Below are positions 1 to 64,000 of a stretch of DNA of 64,000 nt, piece after piece. The DNA is from Psammoneis japonica (Eukaryota): assembly GCA_008632985.1 (NCBI GenBank), contig QPGO01000151.1, forward strand, positions 62,001 to 126,000, read 5' to 3'. A program made the position numbers and the translations under genes. Position 1 is the first letter of the stretch; the number at the start of each line of letters is the position of its first letter. The notes under the pieces are model-generated. The model saw only the letters and a program-made list of their open reading frames with translations, was not told the DNA's origin and ran no database searches.

Positions 1-939
1 AGCAACAGTCAACCAAAGACATTGATGTCATGTGCAAAAACTCATTTGGACAGGAAGAGGGAGATGTGCTCCAAAGGAAGTCAACTGCAGGGGCTTCCAG
101 TCAAACTTTGAAGATGACACCCCATCAATGGCAAGGTGCAGTCATAAAGCCAAAATGATCCACAAGAACTTCTGCAAAATTTTTGCCCAAGGGTTGCAGC
201 AAAAAGATGCAAAAGGGATTCAACAAAGAACAGCTGAGAAAAAAGCATGAGCTGCAAAAGAAACAACGGGCCAATCACATGGGGGAAGAAAGAAACCAAG
301 CTCACAAAAGAAGGAAACAGGCAAGGTTGAAGGAAAATGTCAGCAAAGAATCAGGCAAGGAAGGATTCAACGAAAAAGAGGGCAGTGATGCAGATGGCAA
401 TGGTGACATCATGCAGGAGATTGAAGTGCAAGAGGAAGGTGACTTCCAAAACAACAAAGGGGATGAAGGCCAGGACAACCACAAGGAGAGTGTGCATGAG
501 GACAGCAAAAAAGATGAAATTGTTGAGACTGAAGAAGGTTCCGTGCAGCAGATGGCAGTCACCAGCTCAGAAGACAATGACAGAGATGACAGCAAAGAGG
601 AAGGTGGCCTCCAAAACAATGACAGGGACAAAGGCCAGGACAGGAAGAGTGAGCACAAGGACAGCAAAGATCAGGGTGGGCACAACAAGGCTGAAAGTGC
701 ACCCAAAGAAAGGGCAAGTGATGCCAGTTTGGCAGAGCTGAGTGGCAGCACTGATCACTGATTTGCAGAGGGGCTTTCCTGGAGCATCGCAGATCTCCCA
801 AACATGCAGTGCCACAAATCCATCTGCAGGTGCTCATCCAGTGGTTCAGTTGCATCACACTGTTTGGCAAATGTGATGATTCGTTGGCATGGTTCATTTT
901 TGCTCAACAAAAGTGGCCAAGGCCATTGCCACTCATCCC

Positions 940-1297
940 ATGCAATGTTGATGCAACCATGTGTCAATTTTGCATTTTTTCTGTTGGTCAAAGTGGCTGT
1001 GGCCATTGCCACTCCCGCACAAAATTGATGCAGCCATGCGTTGATTTTGCACGTCGATCATGCATTTTTTCTGTCAGCCAAAGTGGCTGTGGACATTGCC
1101 ACTTGCGTGCAAAATTGATGCAACCACGCATCAATTTTGCATGTCAATTTTGTGCAAGTGGCTGTGGCTGTTGCCACTCCCATGCAAAATTGACATGACC
1201 ATGCATCGATTTTGCACTGTGGCTCATGTTGTGAGTGACTCCAATTGGCAAAACACCAGAGATGCAAAATTGATGTGACCATGTGTTGATTTTGCAC
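940..1297. repeat. Five degenerate copies of a ~34-bp palindromic unit, period ~75-90 bp
   Basis: Units like tgcaaaattgatgcaaccacgcatcaattttgca at ~941, 1018, 1108, 1183 and 1263; most spacers share gtggctgtggccattgccactccc. Confidence 0.8.
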
Positions 1298-1404
1298 TCA
1301 TCTGTCTGTCTTTCTGCATGCTGAGCACCTGATGCAGAACACCTCACAACCTGACCCCAGCCCCTCCCTTGCCAAATCCACTCTTTGAAGTCAGCCAAAA
1401 TGAC

Positions 1405-1520
1405 CATTGTTTTCCTTGACGTCAGCCAAAACAATGGGTTGTTTTCCTTGACATCAAAAAAAAAAAACAGTTTGTTTTCCCTGGCATCAACAAAAACAAC
1501 AGGTTGTTTTCCTTGTCAGA
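1405..1520. repeat. Short degenerate tandem repeat (gttttccttgacrtca..aaaaca x4), possibly subterminal repeats of a DNA transposon
   Basis: Four similar units at ~1408, 1440, 1474 and 1505. Confidence 0.5.
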
Positions 1521-1619
1521 GCAGACTCATCATCGTCCATGATGGCAGAAAACATCTGAGCATCAAACAACAATGACAGCCATCAATCCACAACAAACTT
1601 CAGTCAACAGGAGATGTGA

Positions 1620-4600
1620 AAAATTGTCCCCGCGAAATGACAACAACGATGCCAATTCATCTGCAACAAGTGACATCCTCTCTTGGAGAGGCAAACCACA
1701 GAAACCCAAATTAAACCACCAGCCGCACTGGCTTGGGAGGCCAAGACACATGGATGCAAGTCACAGGTGCCTGGCCTTGGTGCTGGGACATTGCAAAAAG
1801 ATGCAAGAGCAAAGGCTCCAACACCGCTCCCCCGTGACCAATTTTGCAAGCAGATCTGCCAAGTTCATTTCTGCACTCTCCTTGCCAACATGAATGGTGC
1901 CCACTGCAACCACCTCTCACACCACATGGCAGTTGATTGCACCATGCTTCTTGTGCAAAACCAATTCAGGAACACTTGCATTTTTTGCCACACCATGATC
2001 ATCACAAAAGACACTTGCCAGTCCTTCAAGAGGTGTGCCACACATTCAAAGCTTGTGGCACAAAGCAACAATCAATTCTTTGCAAATCTGCATCACAGCC
2101 AACGCTTCCAAACATCACCAACTCAACAGTGTTCTGCCACTTGCTGAACCATGTGATTGGCGTGTCATTGACAAACATGAAGATCCCACTGTGAGACCTG
2201 TGAGACCTGTGAGTTGCAACATTGCCTGCATGGTTGGCATCAATGGAGGCACAGATGTTTGCCGGGTTGCCCCAAGGCTTTGGCACTTGTGACGGCAGTT
2301 CCTCCTTGACATCCCCACAAAACTCAGTCCAACCAGCATTTGAGTTAAAAACAGATTCTTCAATCACTGGTTCCTTTGGATCAAATCCAATGCTTCTTCA
2401 TGTGCGCAAACACATGGTGCAATGCTTCAAGATGTCCCTTCCTTGGATTAGCCTGACACTGAGACAGGGTTGAAACTTCATGCAAAATGTCAATGCAACC
2501 CAACTTGATTGCCCAACAGCAAATTCCCATCAACTGCAAATGCCTGTCCACTGAATCGGCACCCAATTTGTCTGTCACATCCAGCTCCAGCTTGTGCTTT
2601 GGGGTCAAAGGATCCTTCAGGCAGTTCTTCAAAACTTCCCCATTGCCATCGTCATCCAAGAGGCCTTTGACAGTCTTGACAGCCATTCTTGACGCATGCC
2701 CCAGGGGGGAGCTTGCCCAAATGGCACGACCATCCTCAGTCTGAACCTTCTCAACATCAGCTCCAAGGTGGATCTCCAGCTCTCCTTTGCTGCCAGGTTT
2801 CATGGCAAAATGCTCACCCACAGCAGTGACAACAGACTTTCCCTGATGGAAAATGATCAGAATGTCATTGACATGAACCAGAAGCATTTCACAACACTCA
2901 TGCCTGTCCTCATGAGTCACCATGCACAAGCAAACATCAGGATCTGCTCTCAATGATTCAAAGCCTGAGTTGTGTTAGACCGATGCCAACACAGACCTCC
3001 AAGAGCATCCTGAGTTCTTCAGACCATGCAATGCCTGAGTGACAACTGGCACCTTGCCCTGACACTTGCCACATTCCTTGCCACCTTCAAACCATGTCTT
3101 CTCTGCACACGGCGCATTTGAGCATGCATTCTTTAGATCAATTGCTGCAATGTCAATTCTGTTCAAAGCTGCCAACAAGAAACCAAGCCATGCACTGTCT
3201 CTAGAAAAAACACTTGAGTGCATTGTTGATGCCAGAGCCTCTGTTGTGTGACCTCCTGCCACAAATCTGGCCTTTCCAGTGAAACCATCTTGTCATTGAA
3301 AACCAAATGACATTTGATCTCCTGACAACCATGCAAAGTTGTGCTCTTGCCTTCCCAGACAACTTGTGGGGTTTCAGCCTTGTGCTCACACCATGCCACT
3401 TTTACCTTCTCCATTTCTTTGTCAATTTCATGGGCCCAACAATCTGTCCCCACTTCCTGATCAATCTGCAATGCATCTTCTGTTGATTTGGGCAAATGCA
3501 CTCCAACCTTGGGAGTCACACCAGCACTTCTTCTCAACCTTTGATGTGATGCGGCTCCACTTGTGTGAGACATGTGTGACCCACCAAGCAAGTGCCGGTT
3601 CCTCTGTCAACCTGTTTGCAACAGCACACTCAGCAACTTCAATTGGGTCAGACTCTTTCAGATCTTCAAGCTTGACCCATGACAAGCTGCCATCTTTCCA
3701 TCCAACCAAAAATTTCCAGCCCTTTGTCATGATTTTCTTCTTCTCCTTCCCATCAGTGGTTCGCATGGTGCCCTCAGAAATGGGTGTCACATCACCCATC
3801 TTTTTACAATCCTGCATCTCCTGTGAGACAGAGTGCTGGTTGGCTTTGCTGTGGACCTGAGCAAACACATTCTCGGCAATTACATTGGCCATGGTGTGCT
3901 TGTCTGTGGTCCTGCCAGTGTGCTCCACTTTGTGCTCACGAGTGTCAAACAATGGGTTTTGGTGCCAAGTCCCAATTGGACGCTCATCCTGTCCTCTTGT
4001 GCATTTGGTTGCAACACCTGGCCATTCACCGTCAGCCCCAAAGTCAAACATGAGTTCCATGCCCAGATGCTGATCAATTGCCTGGTCATTGTCATCTTCC
4101 GGTCATTCATCCAGCAGCAACATGTCCCCGCATTCTTCATCTGTTGGCATGACACTGCCTTCACACTCCACACTGGGGTTGCCTTCGACAGCAAAGTCAT
4201 CCAATGCAAATGCCAGCGCAGCTTCGTCACCATGCAAAACAAAGCCAGTGTCATCCAATTGTGCTTCGAGTTGTTCATTGAAGTTGTCAACCTCAACACA
4301 AATGTCAGGCTGCACCATGTCAGCCTGCGTCACATGCTCCACTGATGTCTTAGAGACTGTCTCCCCACTTTCTGCAATGATCCAACAGCACATGTCCGAC
4401 CCTGCTTTGTGTGAGATGCCAAGCCATCATGCAAGCCTTTGTGAGTCATCCATTGCACTTGGCTTGTTGGGCCTGTCCCCCCACCAGACTAAGTCACAGA
4501 AACCAAAGTCTAAATGCTCGCCTGTCTCCGGCATCTGACCAGCAACCTCTTCATGCCCAGTCCTCTTGTCTCTTCTTCTTGCCATGCATGACACCAGTTC

Positions 4601-7600
4601 TGATTCACAAACAAGACCAAAGTCCCACAGCCATTTTGGCACCTTCTTCTTTGTCTCATCCTCAGCCACCAACGCTTGGCCAAGAAACCGATTTTGTGCT
4701 CCACTGCCTGATTCTGGTTCTTTTGACCCTGTTCTGATGTCCTCAGCTGAATCCTTGTGCATCGCACATGATTCACAAATTTGGTGCTGCGTCCAGTGAA
4801 CTCTCCTGCTCCATCTGACATGAGACATTCTGGTGCACCCATGTCATCTGCAAATTCAACGAGAGACAAGCTTGCCTCCGACCTTGCGGTCATTGGCACA
4901 ACCTTCACAAATTTGCCCTGAGTGCAAATGTTGGCACACATGTTGCCGAGCAAAGACTTCACCTTGGACAATGAAGTGTCCATGGACCATGTCCCTTTCA
5001 GTCATTTGCGGTGCAAATCCAGGTGATCCACCCTCACTCTCCTGACATTGGCTGAGTTGCCATCCAAACACCATGCTGTTTCCAAGCCAACATTCCACTT
5101 CCAAGCCAACTCCTTGGCATTGATCTTAGAGTGTTGATGCTTGCTGTGCAGCTCTCTGACAGACCTTTCTTTGCTGTCCATGTCATCACGATGTGCACAA
5201 GCCACATTGGCTGAACCAACAAGCCTGTCACAGAATGATTGGAGGTGGCAAATTGGGGATGCACTGGTTGGCTCCACTTCAACTTTGCCCATCAAACCGC
5301 TTGGAACTTTGCCCTGTTGCATCTCATCTCCTCGATTTGTTCCTGTCACATGCCAGAGATCAACAATTAAACAGCGCGCATCTTTGACTGTTCCCCAGTC
5401 CATCCAGGTGAGCCCATGTCAATTTCTGTTGGATTCCATGCATCACCAGTCAGGAGCACAACCGGCAAATTTTGCTCCTCCAAATCTGTTGGAACACAAG
5501 ATTTGAAGGATGCAATTGTCCCCGTGGTGGTGAAGGGGATGAAAGACTCATCAGCTTCAATGCCAAAACCATTTCGGGTGTCGCAAGGGTTGTCATGCAC
5601 AGGCAAGTTGTGTGCCCAATGTTGATTGGGATTCAAGAGTGAGTGTTCCATGTCTGTTCCAAACCAAAGCATTCAGTCACCAACCAGCAGACATTCATGA
5701 GTCGTCTCTGGATCCGTCCACACAGTGCAACAATGCACCACAGGAACCTGTTTGATTGGCTCATGAGAGTCTAAGAAGGGGCAAACTTCACACACTTTGT
5801 TTGTCAATTCCACAAGTTTCCAGTTTGCTCCAGTGCAACATGCATCCACATGAGCATCACATTCATTCTGAGTGGCAAAAACAGGTGTGGTCAAATTCAT
5901 CATTGAGGCAGAAGTTGTTGATGAAATCACACATTTCAATGTTGCAGCAGTGCGCCTTGTTGTCACGTTTTCATTCAATTGGAAAATTGGGTGGGGTTCA
6001 GGCAACAGCAACAAGAGTGACACAAGCAAGACAGACAAGTGCACCATGTGCACCAACATTCCAGCAGCTTTGACCACCACCCCCAGCAGTCAAGTGAAAC
6101 TGTGGTGAGCTCCATGACTGAAAGCACGACCATTGCGTCCGCTGCGATCATGATCACCACCGCAACCATGACTGCCACCTTCATTCTGTGCCTGTTTGGA
6201 CTGTTTGCTTTGGTCCTCTTGATGAACGTGGGCTTCTGCTGCATGCCTGCTGCTGCCACCATCATGTCTGCTCCTTCCTGCAGGAGAACCGCGACCACCA
6301 CTGCATCCTTGCCCCATTTGTTCATGAGCACAGAAAACACAGTTGATTCCTCCGTTGAAACAGAGCTTGTCCCATCATTGAGGAGAAAAGCTCCTTGTGG
6401 GGTTGGAAACATTGACCCCATTGATCACAGTGGCATGGTCACCGCCTCTACCTTGACCCTGACCTTGACGTCCACCACGTCCTCTGCCGTGGCCGCACCC
6501 CCATGGAAACCACGGCCGCTGCTGCCTCCATGGCTAAATTTGGAAATCTTGCATTTGGTGTGACACCGGGCTTCCAACTGGGCACCTGCATGCAAATGAG
6601 AGACTTTGGATGAGAAGAAAGCACATGCCCCCGCAAAGTCACGAGGATGCTGGCTGCCAATGACAGCCATTGCTGCAATGAGACGTGGATCATCTGACCG
6701 GATTCCTTTCAAAAGAATTTCCACCTTCTGTCACTCAGACTTGTGGTCATCCAGGGATTTGTCCAAAGTGGCAAAAGCACTGGCGAGCTTCCAATTGAAT
6801 TTCTCAAATGGGAGTGACCCTTCCTTCTTGTAAAATGATGATTTGACATTGGCCGTTGCCAGGTGAATGCACTTGCTTGGCTTGCATCACCAAATGGTTC
6901 CATCTGAGCCCATCCTGCCATGTCAATCAAATGTTCCTTCAGCACACAAGATGTGCTGCAATTGTCCTCATCAAATGTGCTCCATTCAATGGCAACTGAC
7001 ACACATGCTGCTGCTGAGCATCCGTGAACATGGCTGGAGCCAACATCCTCCTTGCTGCGTGCCAAAGTGGCTCCTTCAAAACACAAAACTTCTGTGCCAA
7101 GAGATTCAAGAAAGCATCCTCACATGCATTGAAGTCCTCAGACTTAAACTTGATGAGACTGCTCACTGATGCATCTGATTCAGTGTGCTCCTTTTCAACT
7201 TGTCTGCCGTTTGGAGCCGAAGTCATGGCTGCTGCATTAAAATCTGCCACAACTGGCACTTGACTCCTCTTCAAATGATCCTGGCACCACCATGCCAACG
7301 CCTGCAAGTTCTTGATTTGGGCAGTGCCAAGAGTCACATGGCCATCTGCTGCAGTGCACGAGCCACCCTTTGCGCCAAGTCTTCAACATTGTGGTCATTT
7401 TCCACAACTGCAATGTTCTCCAAGGTTGCAAACCCTTCACAGAAGACCAATCTCGCCCTCACACTCTGGTCAACAACAACACAAACTTGTAAAACTGCAT
7501 CAATGTCAGCTGCCACCGCCAAAGCCGCAAGTGCTGCTGCCGCTGCCATCCTGTGGCAAAGAAACACCAATGTCCCCCCATGCGGGGAACAAGTGGCTCT

Positions 7601-8202
7601 GTGAGTCTGCATGGTCATGGAGGTTGCACTTTTCCAGTGTTGTGATGATGGGTTCACATGGCCACCTGACATCAGGGTGATCAGTCCTGTGTCGTTCAAC
7701 TTCATTGAGCATGCACTCGGGCATGCTGCCCACCAACACCGCAGCCCCCTCACACCCATTGTGTGTGTGAGGACAGCGACTGTCTTTGCGAGTGTTTTCC
7801 ATTGCAAGCTGTTCTGTGGACTATGCAGGCAACACGAGATGCATCTTCATGCACAACAATCTGAATTCTGATGCCATGCATACGATTCAGTGCCGATTCT
7901 ACAGCTGCACGTTCCATGCAAGCAACACAACGAACAACCGTGCAGGACGAACTGCGCTTGCAACCATTTCGATCAGCGTTTTGCTGATGGCTCTGATAAA
8001 GCAAATAAATCCTGATGTAATGAGAGGACGAGTGCAACACCTTAAGCCTAAAGAAAGTGGCAACAATGTCAATGTGAACCTGGACCTGATTAGATTGTGG
8101 GAGAGAACAATCATCACCAGTGTGTCTGCCCTGACCAGGGACAGACCACTCCATCCAAATTCATGGTTCCACCCGCCCGCCCATCACCCGATATCATCGT
8201 CA
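1620..8202 (-). mobile_element. Degenerate Ty1/copia LTR retrotransposon (diatom CoDi-like), order gag-PR-IN-RT-RNaseH
   Basis: Minus-strand fragments in copia order: gag (~7560-6430, IKNLQALAWW); protease (NECDAHVDACCTGAN, HSLLNPNQ, ~5900-5400); integrase (MDTSLSKVKSLLGN..LMSDGAGEFTG, ~4980-4300); WKDGSLSWVKLEDLKESDPIEVAE linker; RT (IDLKNACSNAP, LVHVNDIL for YVDD, ~3300-2400); RNase H (DANHAGNVAT, NLADLLAK, ~2300-1795). PPT-like atttcgcggggac at ~1626-1638. Confidence 0.92.
7990..8202 (-). repeat. Possible 5' LTR (TG at 8202 to CA at ~8013) and PBS-like TATCAGAGC (7990-7998) of the copia element
   Basis: Minus strand TGACGATG...TTACATCA followed ~14 nt later by TATCAGAGC, the core of the tRNA-iMet PBS TGGTATCAGAGC. 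No matching 3' LTR was seen. Confidence 0.35.
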
Positions 8203-9337: not shown

Positions 9338-9559
9338 TTTGTCAACTTCTTGCGTCCGGAGATTTTTTTTTTTAACCAAACGTTTCAACAGGCTTTGCTC
9401 TCGACGACGCTTATTGAAACTGTTCACGACCTTGTGATTAAAAACCGGTACCCGTTTTCTGATCACGACGATGTCAGAGGGCAATCATCCATCTGGCGTT
9501 GTGATGACCTGCGACCTGCGACAATTGCTACCTTTGAGTCTTGCGTCGTCCCAAACTTT

Positions 9560-11650
9560 CGAAAAAAATTGGCATGTCTGATCATCGTCGCACTGTGGAA
9601 ATGGTGTGGCACAAGCAGCAGATCACTCGTCTCCATTCTCCATCTCATCCGTTTTGTGCATGACACCACACGCAACTGTCCCGATGTGCTTGGAAATGTG
9701 AGGTCACCATCAGAGGGGCCTCACCAATCAGCAACGGGTGTCACTCATTGGTGGGTGCCTCCTCCACCAGAACCTCTCACCACAACTTGGTTTGTTGCAA
9801 CCTTTGTCAGAGCTCAAGTCTTCTTTTGGCTGGATCTTGCAACACTGCTGGTGCAGCTGGAGCCCACAAGGTGGCATGGCTCAATCCCCCTTCTCTTGTG
9901 ATTTGTTTCTGTGGGAAGCCAAGCCATTTGGAGCAATGCCAGGCCCAGCAAAATGAAAAAAGAGTGCGCCGTTGCGTGCTCATGTGCAGCCAGCCTTCAC
10001 ACACAAAAATTCCAAGCAGCAAGACCAAACAATGCTCCACAGATGAAAGAGAGCATCCACCTCAAAAAGAGGAAAAGTGTGCTCAGAGCAGCAGAGAGAA
10101 CCCAGCAGCTCCTCTCTTGGAAGGCAGGGTGAGCATTTCTGGAGAACGAAGTTTGTGCTCTTGCTCAAAGAGTGGGCTTCTTTGTGAACTTGCAGCTGGT
10201 CCAAAGCACAGTGAGCAAGGAAGTCCACACTCACTCATTGTCTTGCTGATTGTGTCAGATTGTGCAGCTCATTTTGGGAAGTCTGCTGCTCATTTGCAGC
10301 TTGTCAAAGCCTTCCCCCCCCCCCCCCCCTGTGGCAAATGCCAAAGCAACTGTGAAAAAGGCATGTTTGGAACAAAAGTGCATGAAAAAGCACAACAGTT
10401 TCTTGGCCCAAAGTCTTTAAAGAATGCAAAGCACTGCTTTCACAGTGCTGCACCGAGGATGGCACACAAGTGAGGCTGAGTGTGTTGTCCTGTCATTTTG
10501 ACGGCTCAAATGTGAGTGTGGTTTTGAGCAGCTGGCACTCTGGCTCTTGTTGTCATGAGATTTTCTGGTGTCTAAGTTGGGGGCAAGGCAGAGAAAATTG
10601 GCAGCACCATGGGAGCTGGTGTGCACATGCGTGCCCTGCTGCCATTTGACTGCACATGATGTTGTGTCTGTGCTCTCCCACTTGTGACAGGTGCCCAACC
10701 TCCTGGCAGGCAGTGCCTCATGGAGCTCACATTTGACAATTTGCCCTCAGCATCACATTGCAGCCTTGCATGTGTGGGTTGAAGTTGGCACCAGTGTGTT
10801 CGGCATTTGCACTTGTGTGCCACAATGCAGGAGAGGCAGTTTTGCAGTGCTCGCTCATTTTGCGAGGCCATTGAAAAGGCAGGCTGCTTTTTGCAGCAAG
10901 AACTCAGATGCGTGGGGGAGCCAGCTGCATGACCACAGTTCTTTCTCCCACTGGCTGCTGGAGCACTTGCTCTGAGTGCACATCATTTTGCACCTGGTGC
11001 TCTCTACATTCTTGCAGCACTCCTTCTCACTTGTTGTCAATCATGAAATCGTGCAGCAATGGTTCTCAACAAAGCCTCCCAGGGAGACAAAATGTGGGCT
11101 CACACCAGTGCTTTCTCCAGCTGCTGGGCTCTTGTTGGCATCACAGCACACACCTTGACTGTTTTGTGCCACCACCACTGCATTGTCAGCCAACTCCATT
11201 GAAAGACCATGCCTTGAAAATGTGTTGTTGACACCACCCACTCACAGAGGTTGGTGTGGTCAGGTGTTGTTCATTTTGATGATGCTCTTGACAAGCAGGA
11301 AGCTGTGCTCTTTGGTCCAAGCTGGTGCACTTGCTTGGAGTTGTGAACACACCAAACCTGGAGCAACTCTTCCATCTCATGCTGTCTCAGCTTGTTCATG
11401 GGGTTGCAAATTGGCAACAATGGCTGCTGCCCTCACTCAGTGGTGCAAGCACATCAAGGAGGTCTGTCACCTGCTGGGCCAGTTGCACTTGTTGAGTGAA
11501 CTTGTCCTGTGGGCATCCAACTAACTGCCTCTGTCATCTGCTGCTTTTTGCGCCTGTTGTTCTCGAACGGCTGCCATCTCACGACATGGCTTGGTTGCAC
11601 TCCCACCTGTCCCACACCACCCTCTTGCCCTCTGCCACCCAGCTTTGGGT
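9560..11650. other. TpA/CpG-depleted block 2 (unidentified degenerate repeat)
   Basis: TA nearly absent; Tyr-free, Cys/His-rich spurious ORFs; no recognisable domain. Confidence 0.8.
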
Positions 11651-11652
11651 TT

Positions 11653-11679
11653 GAGAGAGAGAGAGAGAGAGAGAGAGAG
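11653..11679. repeat. (GA)n microsatellite
   Basis: gagaga run of ~13 units at the edge of the depleted block. Confidence 0.9.
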
Positions 11680-52476: not shown

Positions 52477-54356
52477 AAATGCAGACAGCACTGCAACAGG
52501 GCACCCAGTGTGTCAAGTCTGCACCAGCTGGCACATGCAATGACAACATTCACCGAGTGCAGAGTGGAAAGAAAACTTGTGCAACTTTGTCTTCTCACAA
52601 TGCTCATTTGTTCCTTTGCTGGGCTGATGGACAATTGTGACTCTGAGGAACTTTTTGTGGCAACAGGAGCAGCCTTGGAATTGTTGTGGGGCTCAGCATG
52701 TGCAGCTTGCTTTTTGGGGTGTTCTGTTCAATGCAACTGCAGCAGCAAACAGCAATGGCCTCACTTGTTTGAAGTGCATTGACTCTGTTTGGCTTGGTCA
52801 ATGACCAAGGATTTTGAAATGAGGAGAGTCTTTGCTCTCAAGCTGGGAAAGTCTCATTGGCAATGGTCTTTGTGCACACATGCCAAAGCAAAGTTGTCAA
52901 CTTGGCAGAGGAACAGAGCCTTCTTGGTGAACTAAAAGTGCCAGAGCAGATGCATCTGTCTCATGAGCTGCGCTGAAAAAAAAAAAAGCAACTTCATGTC
53001 AGAGAGGAAGCTGCTGACCCAACAATGTTCCCACAGTGCTGCTCAAGACCCAAGTGTCCTTGAATTGCACAAGCTTTGTTGGCAAAACATGCGGGCAATT
53101 GACCTTCTTTCCAAAGTGTTTCTCTTGCACCATGAAGCATGTGCATCATTGACAGAGGAACACACTGGGGAGCCATCAGTGCAGATGTCACAAACGTTGC
53201 CAAACACAGGCAGCAAGAGCAAAGAACATTTGATGGGCTGATTGATCAGTGCAAGCAGAGTGAGCACAGACAAGTTTGCAGAGAGCTGGAGCCACACACT
53301 CAGAACCGTGATTGACAAAACTGAAAGTGCTTGCCCTTTTTTGTGCTCTTGCCCCAGTTGGACATTTTGCAAAGTTTGCTTTGTGTGAGAGCAAGATGAT
53401 CAAGGGTTCAAAAAGTCAACAAAACTCCATGCAAGCAGTGCACTGGTGAAAAAGCAACATTGAAACTCAAAATCTTGGAGTGCACAAGCCAACGCAACTC
53501 ACGCTCAGCACCATCTTTCACAGGTGCATTGGCATCATCAATTAAAACAATGTGTGCACTCTTGAGAACATCCCAAGTGTGGCCATGAGTGATGAGAACA
53601 TCCATCAAAGACAGGTTCCAATTTTTGCATCTGTGATGCAAATGCACCACTGAGCAGCTCACCCATGAGTCGAGTGAAAAACCATGTGTCCAAGCTGCAA
53701 AAGAGAATCCTCAACAGGGCACACAAGAGAGTGTGGCAGCAAAGGGAATCTCAGAGAGAAAGCAAACTTGTCCATGGCTGGCAATTTTCCATTGATTGAG
53801 GTGCGGTTGGTTCACATTTTTGGGTGCACTCTGCACAGATGGATGAAGTTCCCCCCAACTTTGTTGAGATTTGGTGGGGTCCCCAAGAGTGCAACATTTC
53901 AGAAACAGGGCAATTTTCAACCAGGAAACAAGCCCAAATGTGGCAGCCAACAGTGCTGAAAGAGCCAAAGCCATCAACCTTGCCTGTGACAACAGCACAG
54001 CATCTTAGTTCTTTTGGAAGAAAGAGCGTTCTTGATGTGGATGTGGTTGCAGAAAGTGCACAGCTGCCAGAATCAACAGGCAGCCCAGCTCCAATGTCCA
54101 ATGAGCATCTCAGTGGTGGGTTTTCTCAGTTTGCCAAGAGTGTGCCACCAGCCAGCCCTGCTTCACAGTCAAAAGACACAACAAGACATTGAGCTCCCAT
54201 TCGATGTTTGTCACCTTAACCCACACACCAAGAGCACACTCATCTGGACATTTTGGACAGTGCTTTTTCTTTGACAAAAGAGAGAGAGAGGTCACAAAGC
54301 CAGTCCAACAGGCTGCTTTGCACAGTGCATGGCACATTGCCATGAAAATGCTTTTG

Positions 54357-55232
54357 CAGCATGCCTCAGCACTGGACAACACGGCAAGACTGTGCACAGC
54401 CTCTTGCATGTGGCAACGCAGCATTGTCAGCATGCACCTGGGAAGCACAACCACAGGAGGGCGTGGCTCCATGTCTCAGGCAATCTAGAAGGATGCCAAG
54501 AGAGCACCCGTGTGAAGCACACTGACCTGTTGTCTGGCCCACAACAGTGGCGTGATTCCACACGATGATCACTTGTGCACAGCGCGCGATGGTGTGATTC
54601 GCATGATCCACAATGTGAATGCACGATCGATTGGCACAATCCAAAATGCAAATGAACAGCTGATTTGACAAGATTCCCCATTCACACAATTCCATTTCTC
54701 TGCACATGAACCAGCTCACAATTTTCACAATGACACAATTGAAACACATCTGCATTTTTGTAGATTTTGCAACCTGGCGCACTGTGCGGGAGTGACATTG
54801 CTGTGCCCCATGCATGCAATGGGCGACAAAAATGTGGATGTGTTTCAATTGTGTCATTGTGAAAATTGTGAGCCAGTTCATGTGCAGAGAAATGGAATCG
54901 TGCAAACAGGGGATCTTGTCAAATTGGCCATTTGTTCACATTTTGGATCGCACCAATCGATCGTGCATTCGCATTGTGGATCGTGCGAATCATGCCATCA
55001 CACGCTGTGCACAAGTGATGTCATCATGTGGAATCACGCCACTGTTGTGGGCCAGACAACAGGTCAGTGTGCTTCACATGGGTGCTCTCTTGGCATCCTT
55101 CTGGATTGCCCAAGACATGGAGCCACACCCTCCCACAGTCGTGCTTCCCAGGCACGTGCTGACAATGCTGCATTGCCATGTGCAAGAGGCCATGCACGGT
55201 CTTGCCGTGTTGTCCAGCACTGAAGCATGCTG
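54357..55232. mobile_element. Foldback / long-TIR element: ~405-bp inverted arms with a ~64-bp spacer
   Basis: 54357-54761 is the reverse complement of 54826-55232 (e.g. cagcactggacaacacggcaaga / tcttgccgtgttgtccagcactg). Mirrored ORF translations appear on opposite strands. Confidence 0.88.
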
Positions 55233-58200
55233 TGCTTTGAGTGATGCTGTCACTCATGCACAGCAACTGGCACACTGTCTTGCCTGAAACCAATGCTGTC
55301 ATGTTGTTGATCTTTCACTTTCAGATTTTTCACACAGACAAGGTTGCATGGCAGCACAGATCATGCTTGATGCCACAGACTCTTTGGTCTGTTTGGCATT
55401 GATGCACACAGCAGGAGAAAAACACACCCCAAGACTCAAGCAAGCATGTGCAAAATGGGGCACACCCTTCACATGCTTGTGGGTGACTGTTTTGTGCAAA
55501 TGATGGCCACTGTTGTGAGCAGCAAGATGCTGGTGCCAAGAAAAAGATGTTTGGCACCAACTGTCCCATGGAGTTGAGCAAAGCATCTGCAGCCACCTCT
55601 TTTTTAGAACTTGATTTGTCAGCAGTGCGGTGCTCAAGCAGAGTCAGGGCTTTGTTGGACTTTGAGAAAGAAGAGCACAATGTTGACAAAAACAATCTTG
55701 AGCTCAGGGCTGTTCTGGCAATGTTGGTTGCGTGCAGCATTGTCCATTGAGGCAACAGCTGGTAGAGCCAAAACACCCACAAAAGCCTTGTCATGACAAG
55801 TGAGGGCCACAGAAACAAGAAGGACTTTCTCTTGGCATTTGTGCCAATGGTGCTGAGCAACAAAGGCACTTGTGCCATGTTCAGGGGTGTTGACACATCA
55901 CATCAGATGTTTTCAGATCAAAACCTTTTGTTGAGAAAGAGCAAACCCCACTCATCAATTGAAGTGGAGCACAGACTTGGGTGCTGGAAAAGACATGTGC
56001 AGCCAACCAGGCATGGCAAATCAGATCATCCCTCCTCAACAAAGAGCATGTGATCTCAACAGGACAAAGGCTCTGTGGACCAAAAGCAGTGCAAAGTGAT
56101 GAGAGCAGCTACAAAGCTGCAGAATCAAAAAGAGTTCTCAAGGTGTTGTCACTTTGAGTCAGCAACCAAGTTCTGTTGTTGTCAATCTGCTGGGATGGTT
56201 GGAAGATTTTGTCATGCCCAAGTCAACTTGTTGCTCAAAGGTGATGAGACACAAATGGCATCAACTGCTCTTGCAAATGCTCCAAGCCATGAGAAGTGCC
56301 ATGATGCTCAAAACTTCTTGCCTGTTTGCTTCCTTCTCACCAGATTTTCTCTCCCCCAACAAAAAAAATTGGGGTGGTGCCATCATTGTTTTTGGGGGGG
56401 CACTGCAGAAATGCCTCAAGAACCAGAGCAATGGTGCTGAGCCCAGACATTGCAGGAGAGGCACTTTGGCTGGAAAATGAGGGCGGTGAAGTGGAGGGCA
56501 CCCAGCAGGGCTGACAGCCCCCAATTTGCAGCTGCCCTTCTTCCATGTGGTGTCTCTGGACAAAAGAAGGTGGACCACATGCCATGTCCAAGTTCAGGTC
56601 ACACTGTTGGAGGTGAGCAAATCTTCATGAGTGCCACTGACTGCTTTCTTGGTGCCTGCAGCACCAGGAATGGAGGAGGCACAAATGGCTTTTGCCTGGT
56701 CATCCAGTGGTCTGAGATCCAACTTTCTCCTCCCCTCCCTCAAAGAGCGGGCAGCTGTGCCAACTCTGGACCCATCAGCAGCTGCTGACAATGCCTGCAC
56801 ACTGTGAACTTGAGTGAACTGCATGGGCAGGCAGCTGCTCCTGTGCTGCTCTTCAATCTTGTGACCTGAAAGTTGTTTGCCTTGCTTGGGAATGCAGTTG
56901 CAGCAAAGTCCCCCTTCTGTGACAGTGCCCATTGCTGCCACCTTGGGAGCCCATCCATGTTGCCACCTCTGTCAGGCACCTCATTGCTGGAGGAGATGTT
57001 GTTGTTCTTTGCCAGTGCATGGGGTCACATGCCCGCGCAGTTGCCAGCAGCAATGGCCAGCATTCAAGCCACACAGTCAAATCCAAAGCTGTCAACCAAT
57101 GACTTGGAGGCATCAATCCAAGGCAGGTGGCACTTTTCCCCCCCTTGTCTTGACGTTGCAATTGTTGCCATGTCTCCTCCATGTCAACCAACTCTCTTGG
57201 AGCAAGGCCTGTGGCTTCAGTTTCCCTGCAATGATGGGGATGATGGTTGGCATTGCATGTTGAGCAAGGTCCATGTTTGTGGTCAAACAGTCATGGACCA
57301 AAACTGCCCATGTTGCGCTGTGTCATCTGTCAAGGTTGCAGCCACCCTTGGCTGAGCTGGAGCCACAAAAGGCTTTGTGAAAGATGACAGGGTCATTTTC
57401 CAGATGTGTGCCAGTGTGGCACAATTGTGTGCCACAGCTCAAGTTTGACACCCTTTGTGTCCTCCACCCTGGTCATTGACACATGGTCAGAGAGTCAGCT
57501 TCTGCCTGCCTCCAGTGCAAGCAGAGTCCAACTGTTGATGGAGCAGCTGTCAACCCATGTGAGCTCCAAAAGCTGGCTGGCAAAATGTGCACAGGTCACA
57601 CTGCCAAAACCAAAGATGTTGTGCCAGTGCTGGTGCTTTGTTTGCACAGTTGGAAATTCTGCAGCCAGCACTGTTGTCTTGCAGTTGTCACTTCTTTTCT
57701 CAGCCACTCAGCCAAATGACCTGGTGCATGATTGGGAAGATTGCTGACAGAGAGCACAGCAAACAGCGGGCATTGGTGCAGGGCAAGTGGTCTGATGTTT
57801 GGCTCATGAAAGTGCTTTGTCAAAGACCTGGTTTTTTGACCAGCTTGCATTCCACAGGAAAGCCTGCTGCTTTGACTCTTTGTTCACCGCAATGGATTAG
57901 AACAGATTTTTTGCGTGGTTGAATGCACGCAAAATTTTTTTGCCATGACTCACCACAGGACAGCGACGCCATGAGCCCCAACGGTGTTGTCTTTGCCATT
58001 GTTGCAGATGACACATGCTGATAAAACATTGCTCTTCATTTGGAAAAAGCATTTGGAATCAGGTGTTGTGTTTGAGAAACTCCAGCATTGAATTGTGGAT
58101 GGGGCAAACAATGGCAAAACAGATTCATGCAGGCTGTTGTTTTTGCATCAAAGTGTGAGCAGCACACGTTGTTGTCTCTTGCGTTGTTGTGTGCTGCTCC

Positions 58201-59299
58201 CTGCGTTTTATGCAATGCCTTGGCAATGCACACCAATCTGTCATTTTCTGTCTTTACATTCATTCATTGCATCTGAGTTCATTGACAGTGCTGCTGATGG
58301 TGTTGCCATGTTGCAGCATTGTCCATCGCTCCAATTCAGACACCAGTGCTGATGCTGCGTGGGAATTCTGAGGACACACACTGACAACAAATCACTCTTC
58401 ATTGTTCAGAAAAAACATTTGAAAACTGGTGCTGTGTTTGAGAGAGGCTTTGATTGTGGATGGGGGGGCAAAAAAGATGCAGCCAGCAGTTGGGCTTTGT
58501 TTTGGCATCAAAGCAAGTCATGTTGTTGTCTGTTGCATTGTCATTTGTCACTCAATGGATTTTTTGTAGTGCAAGCCAGACGGAATGGCATCAGACACGG
58601 CATTGTCTTCACCTTGACAAAACAAGCTGTTTTGTCAAGGTGCATTTCACCAAGCCATGCATGGACATGTGAGTGTGAGCACATTTGCCGTTTGCCATGG
58701 CCATCAACAAAGGCAGGTGCACAGCCTTGCATTTTTGAGCACTTTGATGAAAGCAAAAAGTTTGCCACTCAAAGTGGCAAGCTTGACAAAAGCTGGCCAG
58801 CAGAGAGGAGGTCATTCAGGGAATGCATGGAATGGAAAAAACTTGATGTTGTGACAACTCAAACATCAGCTGCAATTTGGCACAATGAGCTCCTTCAACT
58901 TCAACTTTTCCAAAATCAAAGGGTCAGTGCATGTGAAACTTTCGTTTGTTTTTTATGCACTCTCCCCTTTTGATTTTTGAAATGATCAGCATTGAAGGAC
59001 TTTGCTGTGCAGAATGCAATTTTTGGTCAGCATTGCACCACATGTGAAAAATGTTCTCTGCACACACTCTTTTTCAATTTTTGGAGCTTGTGTTTGTGGC
59101 CTGCTTCAACTTGCTCAACTGATGTTTGAACATGCCCTCTGTTTCTCCAGATGTCAGACAGCCAGTTTTTGCCAAGTGTGCTGTGAAATGATGTCCTCTT
59201 GCCTCTCATCTGTCTCATCCACCAGCCCTCTTTTTGCACTGTTCACTCAAATCTCCAGTGCACTGTGGCCAAGGAAGAGGAAGCATCTGCTGGAGCTGG

Positions 59300-60800
59300 C
59301 TGTCATCAGGAGCTGGTGAAAGCACAAACCAAAAGTGTCATCACACAGGGCTTTCCTTTCCAAGACAACCCACCCCATCCCAAGTTGATGCTGAAGGAGC
59401 AATGGCCAGCCACACTCCATCCAACCTCACCCCTGACAATGCTGCCATCACTTCCTCCATTCCTCCTGCCAACCAAACTCCTGTCAACCTGAAACCCTCC
59501 AAAAAGTGCTTTGCTTGTGGTCCTCAACCTCCTTTTGACAAAACCCATCATCAACAAGCACTGCATTGTGCAGTGGTCAAAGCAAGAGATGCCATCTTTG
59601 CTTGCATTGCCACTCAGGAGCAACAAGGCTGTGCCTTGCTTCAAACATGCCATGCACATCTCTCTGATTCTTTGAAGCAAGATGCCACCACAACCAACAA
59701 TGCTCACTTGGAAGAGTTCATTGTGTGACCAAAGAACCACAGGCTGTGTCAGACATGGCTTGTGATTTGGGTTCACGAAACAGGTGGTTGTGCCAAACAG
59801 TGTCAGCGTGCTTTGACACTGTGGCTTTCTCTGCGTTTGCCTGCAAATGCAAAATTGTCTTTGACCATGCTGCTGGAGCACCTGGACATGGCAAAGGAGA
59901 GGTTGATGGAATTGGAGCCTGTGTCAAATCACTTGCATGTCAAGAAATGCAGCTCACAGCTGCTGCAGAAGCAAATGATGAAGACAACAGTGCCGGTGCT
60001 TTGGCTGTGGATGACAACAATGTTGCAACAGAGCAAAGTCACAAAAAAATGCCAAAGGAGCAGTTGGTGACAGGAAACAAGCTTTGAGGGAATGCCTTCG
60101 AAAGTTGAAAGAAAGGGCATGTCATCTGCAAGACCACATTGATGTTCTTTTTTTTGTTGAAGTCAAGTTGCAAGGACTGGTGCAACTGCATCAGTGCCAT
60201 TGTGGCATTGATGCCATGTGCCATTTTTAATTTGAACCCCTTGTTTCTGTCTCCTGTTGGATGGCCTTGGGTTGCCATGAAATGCATTCCTTGTGCTTGC
60301 AATGGCTGCCTTGATCAGCTCAGAAGACCTTGGGGGCAAAGAATTTTGGGCCAGCTGAGCAGCCTTGACATGCAGCTGGCAACCGAGCCTGCAAACTGTG
60401 GCTCATCACCAAGGGATGACTGAATGATTGGCAAGTTTGTCAGGTGATTCCAACTGAGAGTGATGGCAGCAAGGTGCAATTGGTTCTCCAATCTGTGTTG
60501 GACATTTTGAACAAGGAGGTGGCAGAGCAAATTGTTGCAAGCAGCTGTGTCACATTGTCTTGTGAATCTGATGAGGGCTGTTGTCTGCTGCAACAGGATG
60601 AACTGCCCCACAAAGCACAGGACAAAGGTGCTGTGTGGAATTGGTTTGATCCACCTGTGGCTGTCAAGGCTGGTGAATGGGTTTGCACAGGAGTGCATCT
60701 AAAAATTGTGGTGTTCCAAGGGCCAGAGGATGCACTCCTGGAGACTCCACTGGGGAGCATCAAATGAGAGCATTGCTCAAGCAAATTGTGGTTGCAAACA
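59300..60800 (+). mobile_element. Degenerate DDE-type DNA transposase remnant (Sola2-like motifs, family uncertain)
   Basis: Fragments HAHLSDSLKQDATT, IWVHETGGCAKQC (from TDGCAKQY) and DHAAGAPGHGKGEVDGIGACVK resemble SDG..QY...HGK..DG.G transposases. Confidence 0.55.
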
Positions 60801-61112
60801 CTGAGCTGAATGAACCATCAGCCTTTCTGCAACTTCCAAGATGTGCAACAGGAACAACGCTTGACTTCTTAATTCACATCATGTGACTGAGGACGAGCAT
60901 GAAGCCTTTCTTGATGCAATCCACCAGTGCAAGCCACTGCATCATTTGATGATGATGACAATGATGACAACAGCAAAAGTGATGAGCCAGAGGAAGAAAA
61001 CAATGATGATGAGGAAGACAGTGTGGGGGGAGGGGAGTGGGACAGCAAAAGTGATGAGCCCAAGGAACAAAATGGGGCAATTGGACAACAGACAAGCACC
61101 ACAATTGTCACT

Positions 61113-63990
61113 TCACATCACGCAAATGGGTTGACCATCTGAAAACAGGCATTTCCCAAGCCACAATTCACAAGCTTTCCTTTTGCCAACCCCCAGCTGC
61201 TTCACCACTTTTGGAATTTCAACAAACTGGTGCACAGTGGCCACTTGTTTTTCTTGCTTGTTCACCACACATTTCACCTCATGTTCCTCATTTCCATGAC
61301 ACCAGTTCAACCACTTGACATTGCTTGTTGGCAATGCAAAATGGTGATTGGAGTCAAAGATCCACCCACAGCACAAGGCAATGCAGCAGTTGTTCACTGG
61401 GTGGCACAAAGTCATGCAGTTGTCATTGCAGGTCATCACATCAAATTGACCACCCACTTTCAAGGAAATGATTTGCCAGAAAACTTCATTTTGGAGCTCC
61501 TTTGTGGGAACTTTCCCTTCAAATGGTTGCTCAGCATGCTCCTTGCAAATGGCACATGATTCTTGTTGTCAGCTTCAACCTGTTTGGCAGATGTTTCAAT
61601 GTGAGATGCAATGCAATCTCTTGTTTCCAAGTCACCAACACAATGAAGAACACCGGCCAGGAACAAAAACATGCAAGTGTTTTTGTTCCCTTGCAAGAAT
61701 TTCACAGGCGGGCCACTCACTGGCAAGTTGATCTCTGTCAATGACAACATCATGTTTCCTTCTGGCAACCAAGCAAAAACCATCCTCTGGCTTCTGATCT
61801 TTTGTGGCATTCTTTCCAAACATCTAAAACCTGTGTCTTGAAATTGTGCTCAGCCCAATCTCAGGTCAAGCAGCTTTTGTGGCTGCTCTCCAGAGTGCAA
61901 CAAACAAAATGAACAACCTTTTGTGCAATCTCCTCCTGACTCCTTCTCTTGACTTTCACAAACTGTGTTGAATTGCAAACAAAGTGTGCTTTTGGCTTGG
62001 TCTCTTCCACACCTTTTTGATGCACAGCCTGGACTCTGTTGAGTTTCTTTTTGGCAATGAGTGCACCAACACACCTGTTCATGGTTCATGGGACAGCCCC
62101 CCCCATTCATTCATTGGTGCCACTGTCAAACCATGCTTCAAACAACATGCAGCCAGAGTTTGGCTCATCAAAGCAACCAAACAAGTGTGGAACAGGCTCC
62201 ACTGAGTTGCCAGGGTGCTTTTTTTTGTGATCCCATGAACTTGGCTCAGTCCAAATTAATTTTGCAACCTTCAACATTGCTCGAGCATTGCCGTGCCTTT
62301 GCTCAGTTGTCTCCCTTTCTTTTTGGTGGCACTCATCTTTACTTGGCAGCCAAACCAATGATGCTCTTGGTGCTCTTGGTCTTGGCTTTGAGGTGCAAAG
62401 GCCATGAAAATCATTGCCATTGCTTGCTTGGTCCATTGACAGCTTTCAACATCTCCTTTTGGCATTTGTGATGTGCATCTCCCACCTTCTCCTTCTTCTT
62501 TTCCTTTCTGTCTCTGAGTTGCACAAGTTGTCTGCAGCTGTGTCTGCCTTGCGCAAATCATCCAAGTGATCTGCACGCAGCTTGACTTCCATCGTGCAAC
62601 AATGGCATTGCATTTTTCTGCACAACAAATGCTGTTGCAGTTGGAGAGCTGCCCCACACCAATCAACAATGTGAGCCAGGGGCGTCTTGAAAAATTCCTT
62701 CTCTTTTGTGTTGTGTGAGAATTGCCATTGTGACAATTCTCTGTTGTTTGCAACTGACTCCACCAACTCAGAGAGCACCACTTTGGTGAAAAAGACTTCT
62801 TGTGCAAACAGCTGCACCTTGTTCCAGAAAAAAAGTTGCTGCTCTCATCAGTCAAAAAAACACACAGCACATGGTTGCACCACCAACCAACAACAACATC
62901 ATGTGCAATGCCTCCAACAGTGACACCTCTTTGTGATGGCATGGACCAAACATGAAAACTTTTCTGCAACCCTGACTGTCAGAATGACATGCCAGCACAA
63001 TGTGCAGCCAGCATCAGCAGAAAGTCTGGGAGTGCAAGGATCATCCTTCTCCACATCATTGTCTGAATTGTCAGGATCTGTCCTGCTGTGACACTTGTCA
63101 TGAAAAACACAATCGTTGTTGTTGTGAATGTTGGACACTTCAATTTGTTCCATTTCTTGACAACTGGAGCATGATGCAGCTTGTTGTCCACCTGATTCCT
63201 TTGAGCAGCTTCTGATGTGATCAAATGATGGTTGTGTGTTTCACACCAATTTTTTCTTGATCATAAAATGAGGCACTTTGGGTCACACACAAACTTGACA
63301 TGCAGTCCTTCAAAGCCAAAATGTCAAGCTCACTCTTCTTTCCTAACAGTGTCTTCACTCTCAAACAACTGTCAAACACTGTCTTCCCAAAAGGCAGCCA
63401 TGCAGTCCTTTTCATGTCACAGCTCAACTTTTTGGGTGTGCACTTTTCCAAATCACCAAGGTTGACCTGGCTTTCTTCATGAATTTCTTCAAACTTGTCA
63501 GCGCAAAATGACTCTCCCAAATGCAGCTTCTTTTGTCAAGTGGTTGATCCCAAAACTCAGGATCCCCACTTGTTGCAGTGGTGTGGGTGATGTGCTTTTG
63601 GCTAGAATGAGGCAATGTGCCAGAGCAACACCTCCAGAGCTCATTTGAGCAACTGGCTCCAAGCACACAGTGCTGGAGTGTTGTCTCCATCGTTTTCTAC
63701 AAGCTTCTCCCACTCCTCCCAGTGCTGGCAAACCACTTTCAAGTCTGAAAGTTGAGACATGGCATTCACAACATTCTCAAAACCCAGCACTTGTTGCAAC
63801 AAGGCAACAGTGTCTTCTGACAATGAAGGCACACACTCCAATTGTTGTTCATGCCCAAAAAAAGGCTTGAACAACAAGTCCAATTGAAAAAAGACAACAC
63901 CACAATTGGATGGCACCATCATCCACTCATCATCACCCAGCCCAATCTTCAAAACTGAAGAGTCATTCACACAGACACAATCAACAAGCA
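61113..63990 (-). pseudogene. Degenerate ORF convergent with the transposase remnant, probably transposon cargo; papain-like Q..C..H..D pattern
   Basis: FLQGNKNTCMFLFLAGVLHCVGD ... CIALCCGWIFDSNHHFALP..LNWC; fragmented by stops and Tyr-free. Confidence 0.35.
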
Positions 63991-64000
63991 CGCCAGTTCC

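Follow-up and report, generated by a model that had tools for sequence, protein, structure and literature searches.

A stretch of 64,000 nucleotides from the diatom Psammoneis japonica (contig QPGO01000151.1 of assembly GCA_008632985.1, positions 62,001 to 126,000; referred to as the window) contains six blocks, one of them carrying the remains of a Ty1/copia retrotransposon, in which the dinucleotide TpA has almost disappeared and CpG is strongly reduced, with TpG and CpA in excess. The changes run from TpA and CpG to TpG and CpA, are specific for these dinucleotides, fall equally on both strands and are confined to the blocks. The blocks are probably the product of a TpA-specific A:T>G:C hypermutation acting in situ at the DNA level, combined with hypermutation or decay of CpG, in silenced foreign DNA; the two components are called the TpA arm and the CpG arm below. 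TpA hypermutation has been described once, in mutation-accumulation lines of Bigelowiella natans (Mettrop et al., bioRxiv 10.64898/2026.01.13.699255), and what is new here is a diatom instance that is saturated and accompanied by the loss of CpG. An initial annotation, made from the letters of the window, had proposed a repeat-targeted hypermutation system that turns TA into TG or CA.

TpA-poor blocks with sharp borders

Dinucleotides were counted in 1-kb windows and then per block, the limits of each block being set from the position of every TA (Table 1). The pooled blocks (28,935 bases) hold 66 TA (observed/expected ratio 0.03) and 333 CG (0.20) next to 3373 CA (1.82) and 3254 TG (1.85), whereas the remaining 34,871 bases between them hold 1378 TA (0.60) and 2034 CG (0.98), with ratios of 1.11 for CA and 1.12 for TG. 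The outside density predicts 1143 TA for the blocks as against the 66 present (Poisson P effectively 0), and AA, AT and TT are not depleted there although TA has nearly vanished. Pyrimidine-purine (YR) steps are about as dense in the blocks (7026 in 28,935 bases, 0.243 per base) as outside (8263 in 34,871, 0.237) and the G+C content is close to 0.48 in both, which is what transitions within pyrimidine-purine steps predict. The borders are sharp, extending over less than about 100 bp; the flanking gene DNA at 7821-9529 is normal, with TA at 0.51 and CG at 0.93, and intergenic DNA beyond the blocks is TA-rich.

The numbers of TA that the initial annotation had estimated by eye, about 20 in 1-7800 and about 30 in 50090-64000, come to 22 and 29 when counted, and its statements that CpG is lost besides TpA and that neighbouring genes are normal agree with the ratios given above. 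It had also spoken of five transposon-derived blocks: the blocks are real and six in number (five when the two parts on either side of 41142-41556 are taken as one), and an origin from a transposon could be shown for block 1 only. In block 6, a (TCT)24 microsatellite is followed by 194 N (52283-52476), both within 52041-52476, and the gap and the simple repeat account for the drop of G+C to 0.37 in that 1-kb window. The opposite composition is found only at 30001-31000, where TA stands at 1.5, CG at 0.42 and CA/TG at 0.81, and which contains (TAGAG)11 at 30488-30542.

Direction of change in the copia element

Block 1 includes the decayed gag-pol coding region of a Ty1/copia element. By tblastn, residues 29-1417 of the 1418-aa polyprotein P0121 are covered in seven pieces, and an 820-residue read-through matches copia polyproteins with an E value of 1.9e-234, 50% identity and 92% coverage; the order of integrase, reverse transcriptase (RVT_2) and RNase H was matched via homology to known copia elements. 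The RVT_2 profile of Pfam gives a weak match (E 5.5e-4) that falls under the Pfam cut-off, indicating that profile searches are badly blinded by the mutation. A direct repeat flanking the copia reading frame was not found, either in the ACGT or in the purine/pyrimidine alphabet, when a pair of long terminal repeats or other shared repeats was searched for; the element continues past the start of the window, and its 3' long terminal repeat may lie outside.

For polarisation, the read-through was aligned to 30 homologues, with stops entered as X, and the 487 columns conserved in at least 70% were examined. None of the 22 conserved Tyr columns has kept Tyr: ten carry Cys (TGT/TGC), eleven His (CAT/CAC) and one Phe, and HVND stands in place of the YxDD motif of the reverse transcriptase, so that the destruction of Tyr codons expected in the initial annotation is complete at these columns. 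Among the 42 conserved Arg columns, 13 are kept, while 11 have changed to TGN (Trp, Cys or stop) and 5 to CAN. The other columns show Ile>ACA (4), Ile>ATG (3), Leu>TCA (4), Thr>ATG (4), Pro>CTG (3), Ala>GTG (3) and Val>GCA (2). In contrast, the amino acids for which neither TA nor CG can occur within the codon (K, N, E, D, Q, F, W, M, G, H and C) are kept in 164 of 233 columns. The losses of Tyr and Arg against this retention indicate that TpA>TpG/CpA and CpG>TpG/CpA are real, polarised substitutions; the direction claimed initially is thus borne out by the substitution spectrum of the copia homologues and, as described below, by internal duplicates.

The loss of TA is not a property of the element family, since the relatives of the element have normal TA; the initial annotation had counted young intact copies that are equally TA-free as a refutation, and these relatives do not provide one. 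Metagenome loci encoding copia relatives have TA ratios of 0.55-0.88 in 79 of 79 cases (the best 79 of 564 confirmed, a sample biased to intact copies and uninformative on the frequency of mutated copies elsewhere), and none of the 600-bp windows in their 443 kb holds two TA or fewer, as against 224 of 634 in the window studied here. One could nevertheless suppose that an intrinsic composition or selection, for example for escape from a nuclease or from RNA decay, or neutral decay under the mutation bias of the genome, has shaped the blocks, as a mild under-representation of TpA is general and amounts to 0.60 even in the genes here. This explanation is already contradicted, and we give it practically no weight, by the normal TA and CG of the 79 relatives, the destruction of conserved catalytic residues and introduction of stops, the TA-rich intergenic DNA beyond the blocks, and young duplicates that lack transversions and yet have fully diverged at YR steps. 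One metagenome contig encoding a copia relative, L077, has a CpG ratio of 0.21 with a normal TpA ratio of 0.72 and a G+C content of 0.40, and is a case of CpG decay without TpA loss in another host.

Strand symmetry, sequence context and separable arms

Both strands are hit equally, with 10 TGY against 11 CAY at the copia Tyr columns (Y, pyrimidine; R, purine) and TG about equal to CA in every block. Neighbouring TG/CA sites are in the same state in 3283 of 6641 pairs, compared with a fraction of 0.502 in shuffles (z -1.15), and there are no runs. Strand equality and independence of neighbours speak against a one-shot editing of single-stranded RNA or complementary DNA (cDNA) and favour numerous separate events on the DNA duplex. 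Hyper-editing of retroelement RNA or cDNA before integration, by an ADAR-, ADAT- or APOBEC-like enzyme, would fit with block 1 being a retrotransposon, with a mutated tract that stops near the repeat border and with copies mutated independently of each other, as the many contigs of 90-95% identity described below could be; it predicts a strand bias and same-strand runs, however, and the symmetry and absence of runs found here, together with the duplicates and reads discussed below, make it very unlikely.

The TA that survive in the blocks are not a random sample. With the gene-rich remainder of the window taken as a proxy for the ancestral composition, a pyrimidine precedes 56 of the 66 and a purine follows 52, as against 643 and 649 of 1374 outside (P 5e-10 and 4e-7); RTAY survives once, versus 369 occurrences outside, and YTAR 43 times, versus 287. 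Sorted by flank class, the gains in TG and CA agree with an A>G change that is favoured before a pyrimidine, the effect being modest. Survival of CG is 119 of 1022 where TCG occurs on either strand and 214 of 1012 where it does not (P 8e-7). At the protein level there is no general excess of TC>TT, with E>K at 5 of 40 and D>N at 3 of 41 columns versus K>E at 3 of 32 and N>D at 3 of 17, and the C>T arm is hence CpG-specific. A single deaminase preferring a 5' T was considered for both arms and rejected as the main explanation, as C>T is CpG-specific and a general TC>TT excess was not seen.

The two arms are separable. In the public protein P0221 (NCBI/ENA), an open copia polyprotein of 1400 aa, Tyr makes up 0.43% of residues as against a median of 3.42% among 117 matches; at 25 Tyr columns it has Cys 11 times and His 9 times, whereas Arg is kept at 38 of 53 columns and the frame is open. 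Three control homologues keep Tyr at 20 of 25, 20 of 26 and 25 of 26 columns. Since P0221 has lost Tyr and kept Arg, the CpG arm may be a second, separate process. Judged by its residues, TpA erasure is thus present in at least one more public record, one that gene callers have annotated as a protein.

Duplicated stretches as internal clocks

Duplications within the window record the process directly, and they establish that the mutation came after the local duplications. The arms of a palindrome in block 6 differ, over 396 positions compared, by 50 transitions, no transversion and one 2-bp indel. The substitutions comprise 17 adjacent CA<>TG doubles, 9 CG<>TG, 4 CG<>CA, 1 TA<>CA and 2 other transitions, so that 48 of 50 lie within TA, CG, TG or CA steps, and identity rises from 84.3% in the ACGT alphabet to 97.4% in the purine/pyrimidine alphabet. 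The doubles are expected when an ancestral TA (or CG) has mutated on opposite strands in the two arms. From the doubles, about 27 ancestral TA are estimated, one of which survives in one arm, corresponding to a TA loss of at least about 96% per arm; with 6 CG intact in both arms and 13 in one, the CpG loss is estimated at about 52% per arm, whereas other sites have changed at about 0.3% per arm. As a rough inference, which rests on two background changes, the mutation rates would exceed background about 10^3-fold for TpA and 10^2-fold for CpG. A strand bias at the discordant sites of the palindrome (12 versus 5) is not significant.

A tandem pair lies across the left border of block 3. The 4 TA of its outer copy (15095-15222) are each matched by TG or CA in the inner copy. 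The 415-bp segment 41142-41556, which lies between blocks 4 and 5, has a normal composition (TA 1.0, CG 1.1) amid TA-free surroundings; it belongs to a tandem unit, and among the 4 substitutions that separate two 112-bp copies of this unit, 3 are TA<>TG/CA. The segment may have been inserted at a later time and have escaped the mutator. For editing of RNA or cDNA before integration, both the escape of the outer copy at the border of block 3 and the TA<>TG/CA differences that already separate copies of a tandem unit of normal composition are difficult to accommodate, and post-integration timing is favoured. The tandem repeats in block 1 likewise gain in identity, from 69.6% in ACGT to 83.7% in the purine/pyrimidine alphabet. 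The segment 41142-41556 also contains a GGTTCGAAACC-like stretch.

Contigs assembled from raw reads

The Logan contigs of sequencing run X1, which are assembled from raw reads by means of 31-letter words, were compared with positions 1-20000 of the window. Over blocks 1 and 2, X1 contigs of 0.9-2.9 kb differ from the window by 0-2 letters at a depth of about 60-70, like that of neighbouring genes: in block 1, X1 records 1-4 differ by 1-2 letters each and in block 2, records 5 and 6 by none. Long contigs with a single state at TA-free sites exclude a polishing artefact. A misreading of heavily modified DNA during sequencing, base-calling or assembly, a concern of the initial annotation that called for a check at the level of the reads, is extremely improbable on several further grounds. 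Misreading at a modified TpA would yield a mixture of CA and TG instead of a fixed state; the changes are coherent at the level of codons (Tyr to Cys or His; Arg to Trp, Cys, stop or Gln); and the unrelated public protein P0221 shows the same Tyr to Cys/His pattern. In favour of an artefact it can be said that the run in which the raw-read contigs are TA-free comes from one sample and one study and possibly is the source of the assembly itself.

Over block 3 the X1 contigs are shorter and differ from the window. Among the 40 differences listed (46 more exist), 18 lie in block 3, 30 in blocks 1 and 3 together and none in block 2; of the 30, 21 are CG<>TG/CA, TA<>TG/CA or TG<>CA doubles, and the X1 differences overall comprise 59 transitions and 18 transversions. 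At single-copy depth in block 3, the window and X1 thus differ by TG<>CA doubles, CG<>TG/CA and TA<>TG, which again speaks against elements that were edited before they integrated. Among 291 X1 contigs placed on 1-20000, 193 reach an identity of only 90-95%, most of them on 1335-8004, and these are read as other, independently mutated copia copies; the cut-off for contigs was 90% identity, near or under which fully mutated copies would come to lie, and summed depth does not equal copy number. The right TA-free border of block 1 is at 7822-7881, and four X1 contigs diverge from the window before 7886, which is read as the border of the repeat. The initial annotation had described the hypermutation as repeat-targeted: a targeted mutator is in keeping with the evidence, whereas repetition as its trigger was not shown, blocks 2, 3 and positions 1-1334 having the contig depth of genes, that is, of single-copy DNA.

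Proposed mechanism

In the mechanism that we propose, the TpA arm would convert TpA to TpG or CpA by an A>G change on either strand, specifically at this dinucleotide and with the strands hit independently at each site, RTAY being most and YTAR least favoured, to about 95-97% completion. The CpG arm would convert CpG to TpG or CpA, somewhat faster at TCG on either strand, to about 80% completion. The TpA arm would disable proteins by missense, erasing the Tyr, ATA, TTA, CTA and GTA codons and also TAA and TAG, and would in addition remove TATA-like motifs and TA target sites; it is unable to create stops because TGA can come only from TAA, and stops would instead be supplied by the CpG arm via CGA>TGA. 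Together, the two arms would presumably serve genome defence, a role that the initial annotation had already suggested.

For the chemistry of the TpA arm, our leading, still tentative, guess is an ADAT2/TadA-like enzyme that deaminates adenine in DNA. The natural tRNA substrate of TadA and ADAT2/3 always has U33-A34, and the resulting A>I (inosine) change is read as A>G; the evolved TadA of adenine base editors and ADAR also follow a 5'-U/T rule. To our knowledge, no polynucleotide adenosine deaminase has been tied to a genomic TpA footprint. The authors of the B. natans study propose an ADAT2-type DNA adenine deaminase, and trypanosome ADAT2/3 edits DNA, as cited there (bioRxiv 10.64898/2026.01.13.699255). 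Amphioxus ADAT2 is reported to deaminate DNA, C at TCG and A at GAA (PMC10354150), so that such chemistry is possible; a likeness to the process proposed here is that some ADAT2 enzymes deaminate both A and C in DNA, with TCG preferred for C by the amphioxus enzyme, and a difference is that C>T is CpG-specific here.

The same targeting of TpA could alternatively be achieved by modifying the T, to 5-hydroxymethyluracil or 5-formyluracil by a dioxygenase of the TET/JBP type, the modified base then mispairing with G or being misrepaired to give T>C. In a strand-symmetric signature, A>G after T and T>C before A are indistinguishable; in dinoflagellate DNA, TpA and TpC are the preferred sites of 5-hydroxymethyluracil, and 5-formyluracil promotes A:T>G:C mutation. 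On the other hand, no sign of such a modification or enzyme in diatoms was met in this analysis, adenine deamination is the only published proposal for this signature, and a persisting misread base would give a CA/TG mixture per site where the contigs are long and single-state, so that we regard a modified T as unlikely.

The CpG arm would be deamination of methylated CpG, either spontaneous, on transposons methylated by DNMT5, or driven by an enzyme, with DNMT4 acting in the manner of RID. According to Hoguin et al. 2023 (PMC9998398), diatom transposons are CG-methylated via DNMT5a, and DNMT4, which is related to RID, occurs in 31 of 60 diatom species, its function being unknown; DNMT5a methylation or DNMT4 could underlie the arm. 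CpG decay in methylated transposons resembles what is seen here in that CpG>TpG/CpA is limited to silenced elements (L077 being an example), including the 9 CG<>TG and 4 CG<>CA differences of the palindrome; it differs in that it cannot remove TpA. The extent of CpG loss in the palindrome, about 52% as compared with about 0.3% at other sites, hints at a process beyond spontaneous decay.

Comparison with known systems

A full-text literature search for TpA loss or RIP-like mutation (RIP, repeat-induced point mutation) in diatoms gave no diatom report, and only the B. natans preprint surfaced, so that the initial remark that no described mechanism was known is outdated. The preprint reports that two integrated viral regions received 231 of the 302 nuclear point mutations found in mutation-accumulation lines, and that 230 of these 231 were of the A>G or T>C type, each at a TpA; the rate was about 6e-7 per site per generation, or about 1000 times background, in some lines only, and the genome of B. 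natans has TpA-poor, CpA+TpG-rich clusters enriched for RT and DDE genes (bioRxiv 10.64898/2026.01.13.699255). By analogy, the TpA arm may be the same process. The two cases are alike in transitions restricted to TpA that give TpG or CpA depending on the strand, at a rate of about 10^3 times background there and, by the rough estimate from the palindrome, here; in a long-term footprint poor in TpA and rich in CpA+TpG; in a target of integrated, partly silent foreign DNA (nucleocytoplasmic large DNA viruses, NCLDV, and a virophage there) beside normal genes, as shown for block 1 here; and in sequence variation raised inside the affected regions. In B. natans the process acts in situ on integrated DNA viruses, which speaks against editing prior to integration. 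The two cases differ in the host, a chlorarachniophyte (Rhizaria) there and a diatom (Stramenopila) with a copia retrotransposon as the identified target here, and in extent, the NCLDV region having a Rho of 0.45 as compared with the saturated observed/expected ratio of 0.03. The RTAY/YTAR context seen here is not reported in the accessible part of the preprint, and mutations were watched as they arose there, whereas the footprint alone is available here and a rate follows only indirectly from the palindrome. Also unlike B. natans, the blocks have an accompanying G:C>A:T excess (CpG 0.20 against 0.98 outside; Arg CGN to TGN in 11 and to CAN in 5 of 42 columns).

RIP in the fungus Neurospora changes CpA to TpA, and a RIP-type TCG>TTG pattern in basidiomycetes was reportedly described by Horns et al. 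in 2012. The process in the window resembles RIP in consisting of transitions only, on both strands, with sharp limits in mobile or repeated DNA and inactivated elements, and the TCG bias of the CpG arm resembles the basidiomycete pattern. It differs from RIP in that RIP makes TpA and raises A+T, whereas here TpA is destroyed and G+C is 0.48 inside and outside the blocks, and in that RIP gives many TAA and TAG stops, the TpA arm none. APOBEC3 and AID provide another likeness, a deamination by the host that kills retroelements; they act on C, with strand asymmetry (G>A on the plus strand) and in clustered same-strand runs, and none of these is found here.

Several points weigh against the explanation by in situ hypermutation at TpA and CpG or against its details. 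The process in B. natans is without a CpG arm, and the accessible part of the preprint never mentions CpG or diatoms, whereas the CpG arm here is strong. Amphioxus ADAT2 prefers GAA over TA for adenine (PMC10354150), so that ADAT2 chemistry alone does not predict TpA. The proxy for ancestral composition used in the context statistics is a further point of this kind. The normal 415-bp segment means that the process is not currently acting on everything in the neighbourhood. The blocks are taken to be silenced foreign or mobile DNA in the nuclear genome of the diatom; block 1 has been shown to be copia and foreignness is assumed for the other five, a foreign origin being identifiable for one of six blocks only. 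The sequence has been seen in one run from one sample and one study, which may be the source of the assembly and is not an independent confirmation; the differences between the window and the X1 contigs may, but need not, be allelic. Although post-integration timing is favoured, divergence between repeats inside a retroelement could also arise on its cDNA.

A wider reading, which we hold to be doubtful, is that TpA-directed DNA editing is an old defence of the whole SAR group (stramenopiles, alveolates and Rhizaria) that in diatoms is coupled to an enzymatic, RIP-like CpG mutator, its signature having now been met in a rhizarian and a stramenopile. The two arms, working at 10^2-10^3 times background, would erase both of the self-complementary pyrimidine-purine steps in any silenced invader, to the point where Tyr codons, TAA and TAG stops, TATA motifs and CpG are all gone; as part of the same doubtful joint claim, the preferences for RTAY over YTAR and for TCG would be the fingerprints by which the enzymes could be identified.

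Implications

Should the activity prove identical to that of B. natans, nuclear DNA would undergo targeted A:T>G:C editing in more than one alga, including the diatoms, which are dominant and genetically tractable primary producers. If the defence reading is true, mutational genome defence would gain a third kind, next to RIP and APOBEC, with the unusual traits of being GC-neutral together with CpG decay, of making no stop codons and of removing one whole amino acid, Tyr, from its targets. Annotation of transposons via protein profiles fails on TpA-erased DNA, RVT_2 having been missed here at the cut-off of Pfam itself, and gene callers would predict long false open reading frames, only TGA stops remaining, as exemplified by the 1400-aa P0221. 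Transgenes are possibly at risk, and a natural TpA-strict DNA adenine deaminase would interest those working on base editing. In the search for the enzyme, concrete handles are provided by the saturated blocks, by duplicates mutated in part and by the preferred contexts.

Other features of the window

Table 1. Coordinates of the TpA-poor blocks and of the repeats and coding remnant associated with them
Feature	Positions	Strand	Composition (observed/expected)	Remarks
Block 1	1..7820		TA 22 (0.042); CG 0.25	continues past the left end of the window
Block 2	9530..11778		TA 4 (0.03); CG 0.25	
Block 3	15144..17672		TA 9 (0.063); CG 0.25	
Block 4	40467..41141		TA 4 (0.09); CG 0.18	
Block 5	41583..44299		TA 7 (0.038); CG 0.25	
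Block 6	50075..64000		TA 29 (0.03); CG 0.14	continues past the right end of the window; N gap 52283-52476
Decayed Ty1/copia gag-pol coding region	1797..5999	minus		in block 1; in-frame TGA stops and several frame changes
Tandem repeats, about 80-90 bp	870..1298	+		in block 1; TRF period 90; copies differ mostly by transitions
Tandem pair	15095..15350	+		across the left border of block 3
Normal-composition segment	41134..41582	+		between blocks 4 and 5; 1.3 repeats of a 339-bp unit
Palindrome	54355..55234			in block 6; 880 bp, arms about 440 bp

Pfam searches with open reading frames (ORFs) from the blocks, 62 of at least 120 aa and 121 of at least 75 aa (the latter part of 186 listed, the remainder being in the earlier scan of at least 120 aa or in block 1), gave scattered sub-threshold matches that were taken as noise, and among the ORFs scanned there was no match in block 2 and no significant one in blocks 5 and 6. 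For the 269-aa ORF at 9664-10470 in block 2 a homologue was not found, and the ORF at 16849-17670 in block 3 has a single match among 1.84 billion representatives (E 1.4e-4 over 64 residues), which is uninformative. A scan for stop-poor frames picked out no further coding remnants. Searches of the window with ARAGORN and against Rfam gave no tRNA and no Rfam family, the segment 41142-41556 included.

Two repeat-bearing reading frames lie in the DNA between the blocks. At 24915-27139, four tandem units of about 550 bp, about 92% identical, are part of an open frame of 1123 codons (23412-26783, minus strand) for which a Pfam search gave no match; TA and CG are normal in this host gene, indicating that local tandem repetition alone does not trigger the mutator. 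At 34354-35604, 54-bp and 411-bp tandem repeats of normal composition are found in a long open frame of unassigned family (32828-35878, minus strand). A TRAPPC13 gene at 37116-38522 is most like sequences from diatom transcriptomes and genomes (63-67% identity), and genes for a PAP-fibrillin, a leucine-rich repeat (LRR) and a ZZ-domain protein are situated near it. In positions 1-20000, the contigs of a second run, X2, sit on genes only, and the lack of X2 cover over blocks 1-3 was not used as evidence; for 5000-13000, no RNA data set was listed as containing the sequence. The X2 contigs omit four GT..AG intervals of 76-112 bp, at 13090-13727 and 17683-17796, which are probably introns, belonging to the LRR gene and to a gene next to it, and X2, although labelled 'DNA?', is probably a transcript assembly.

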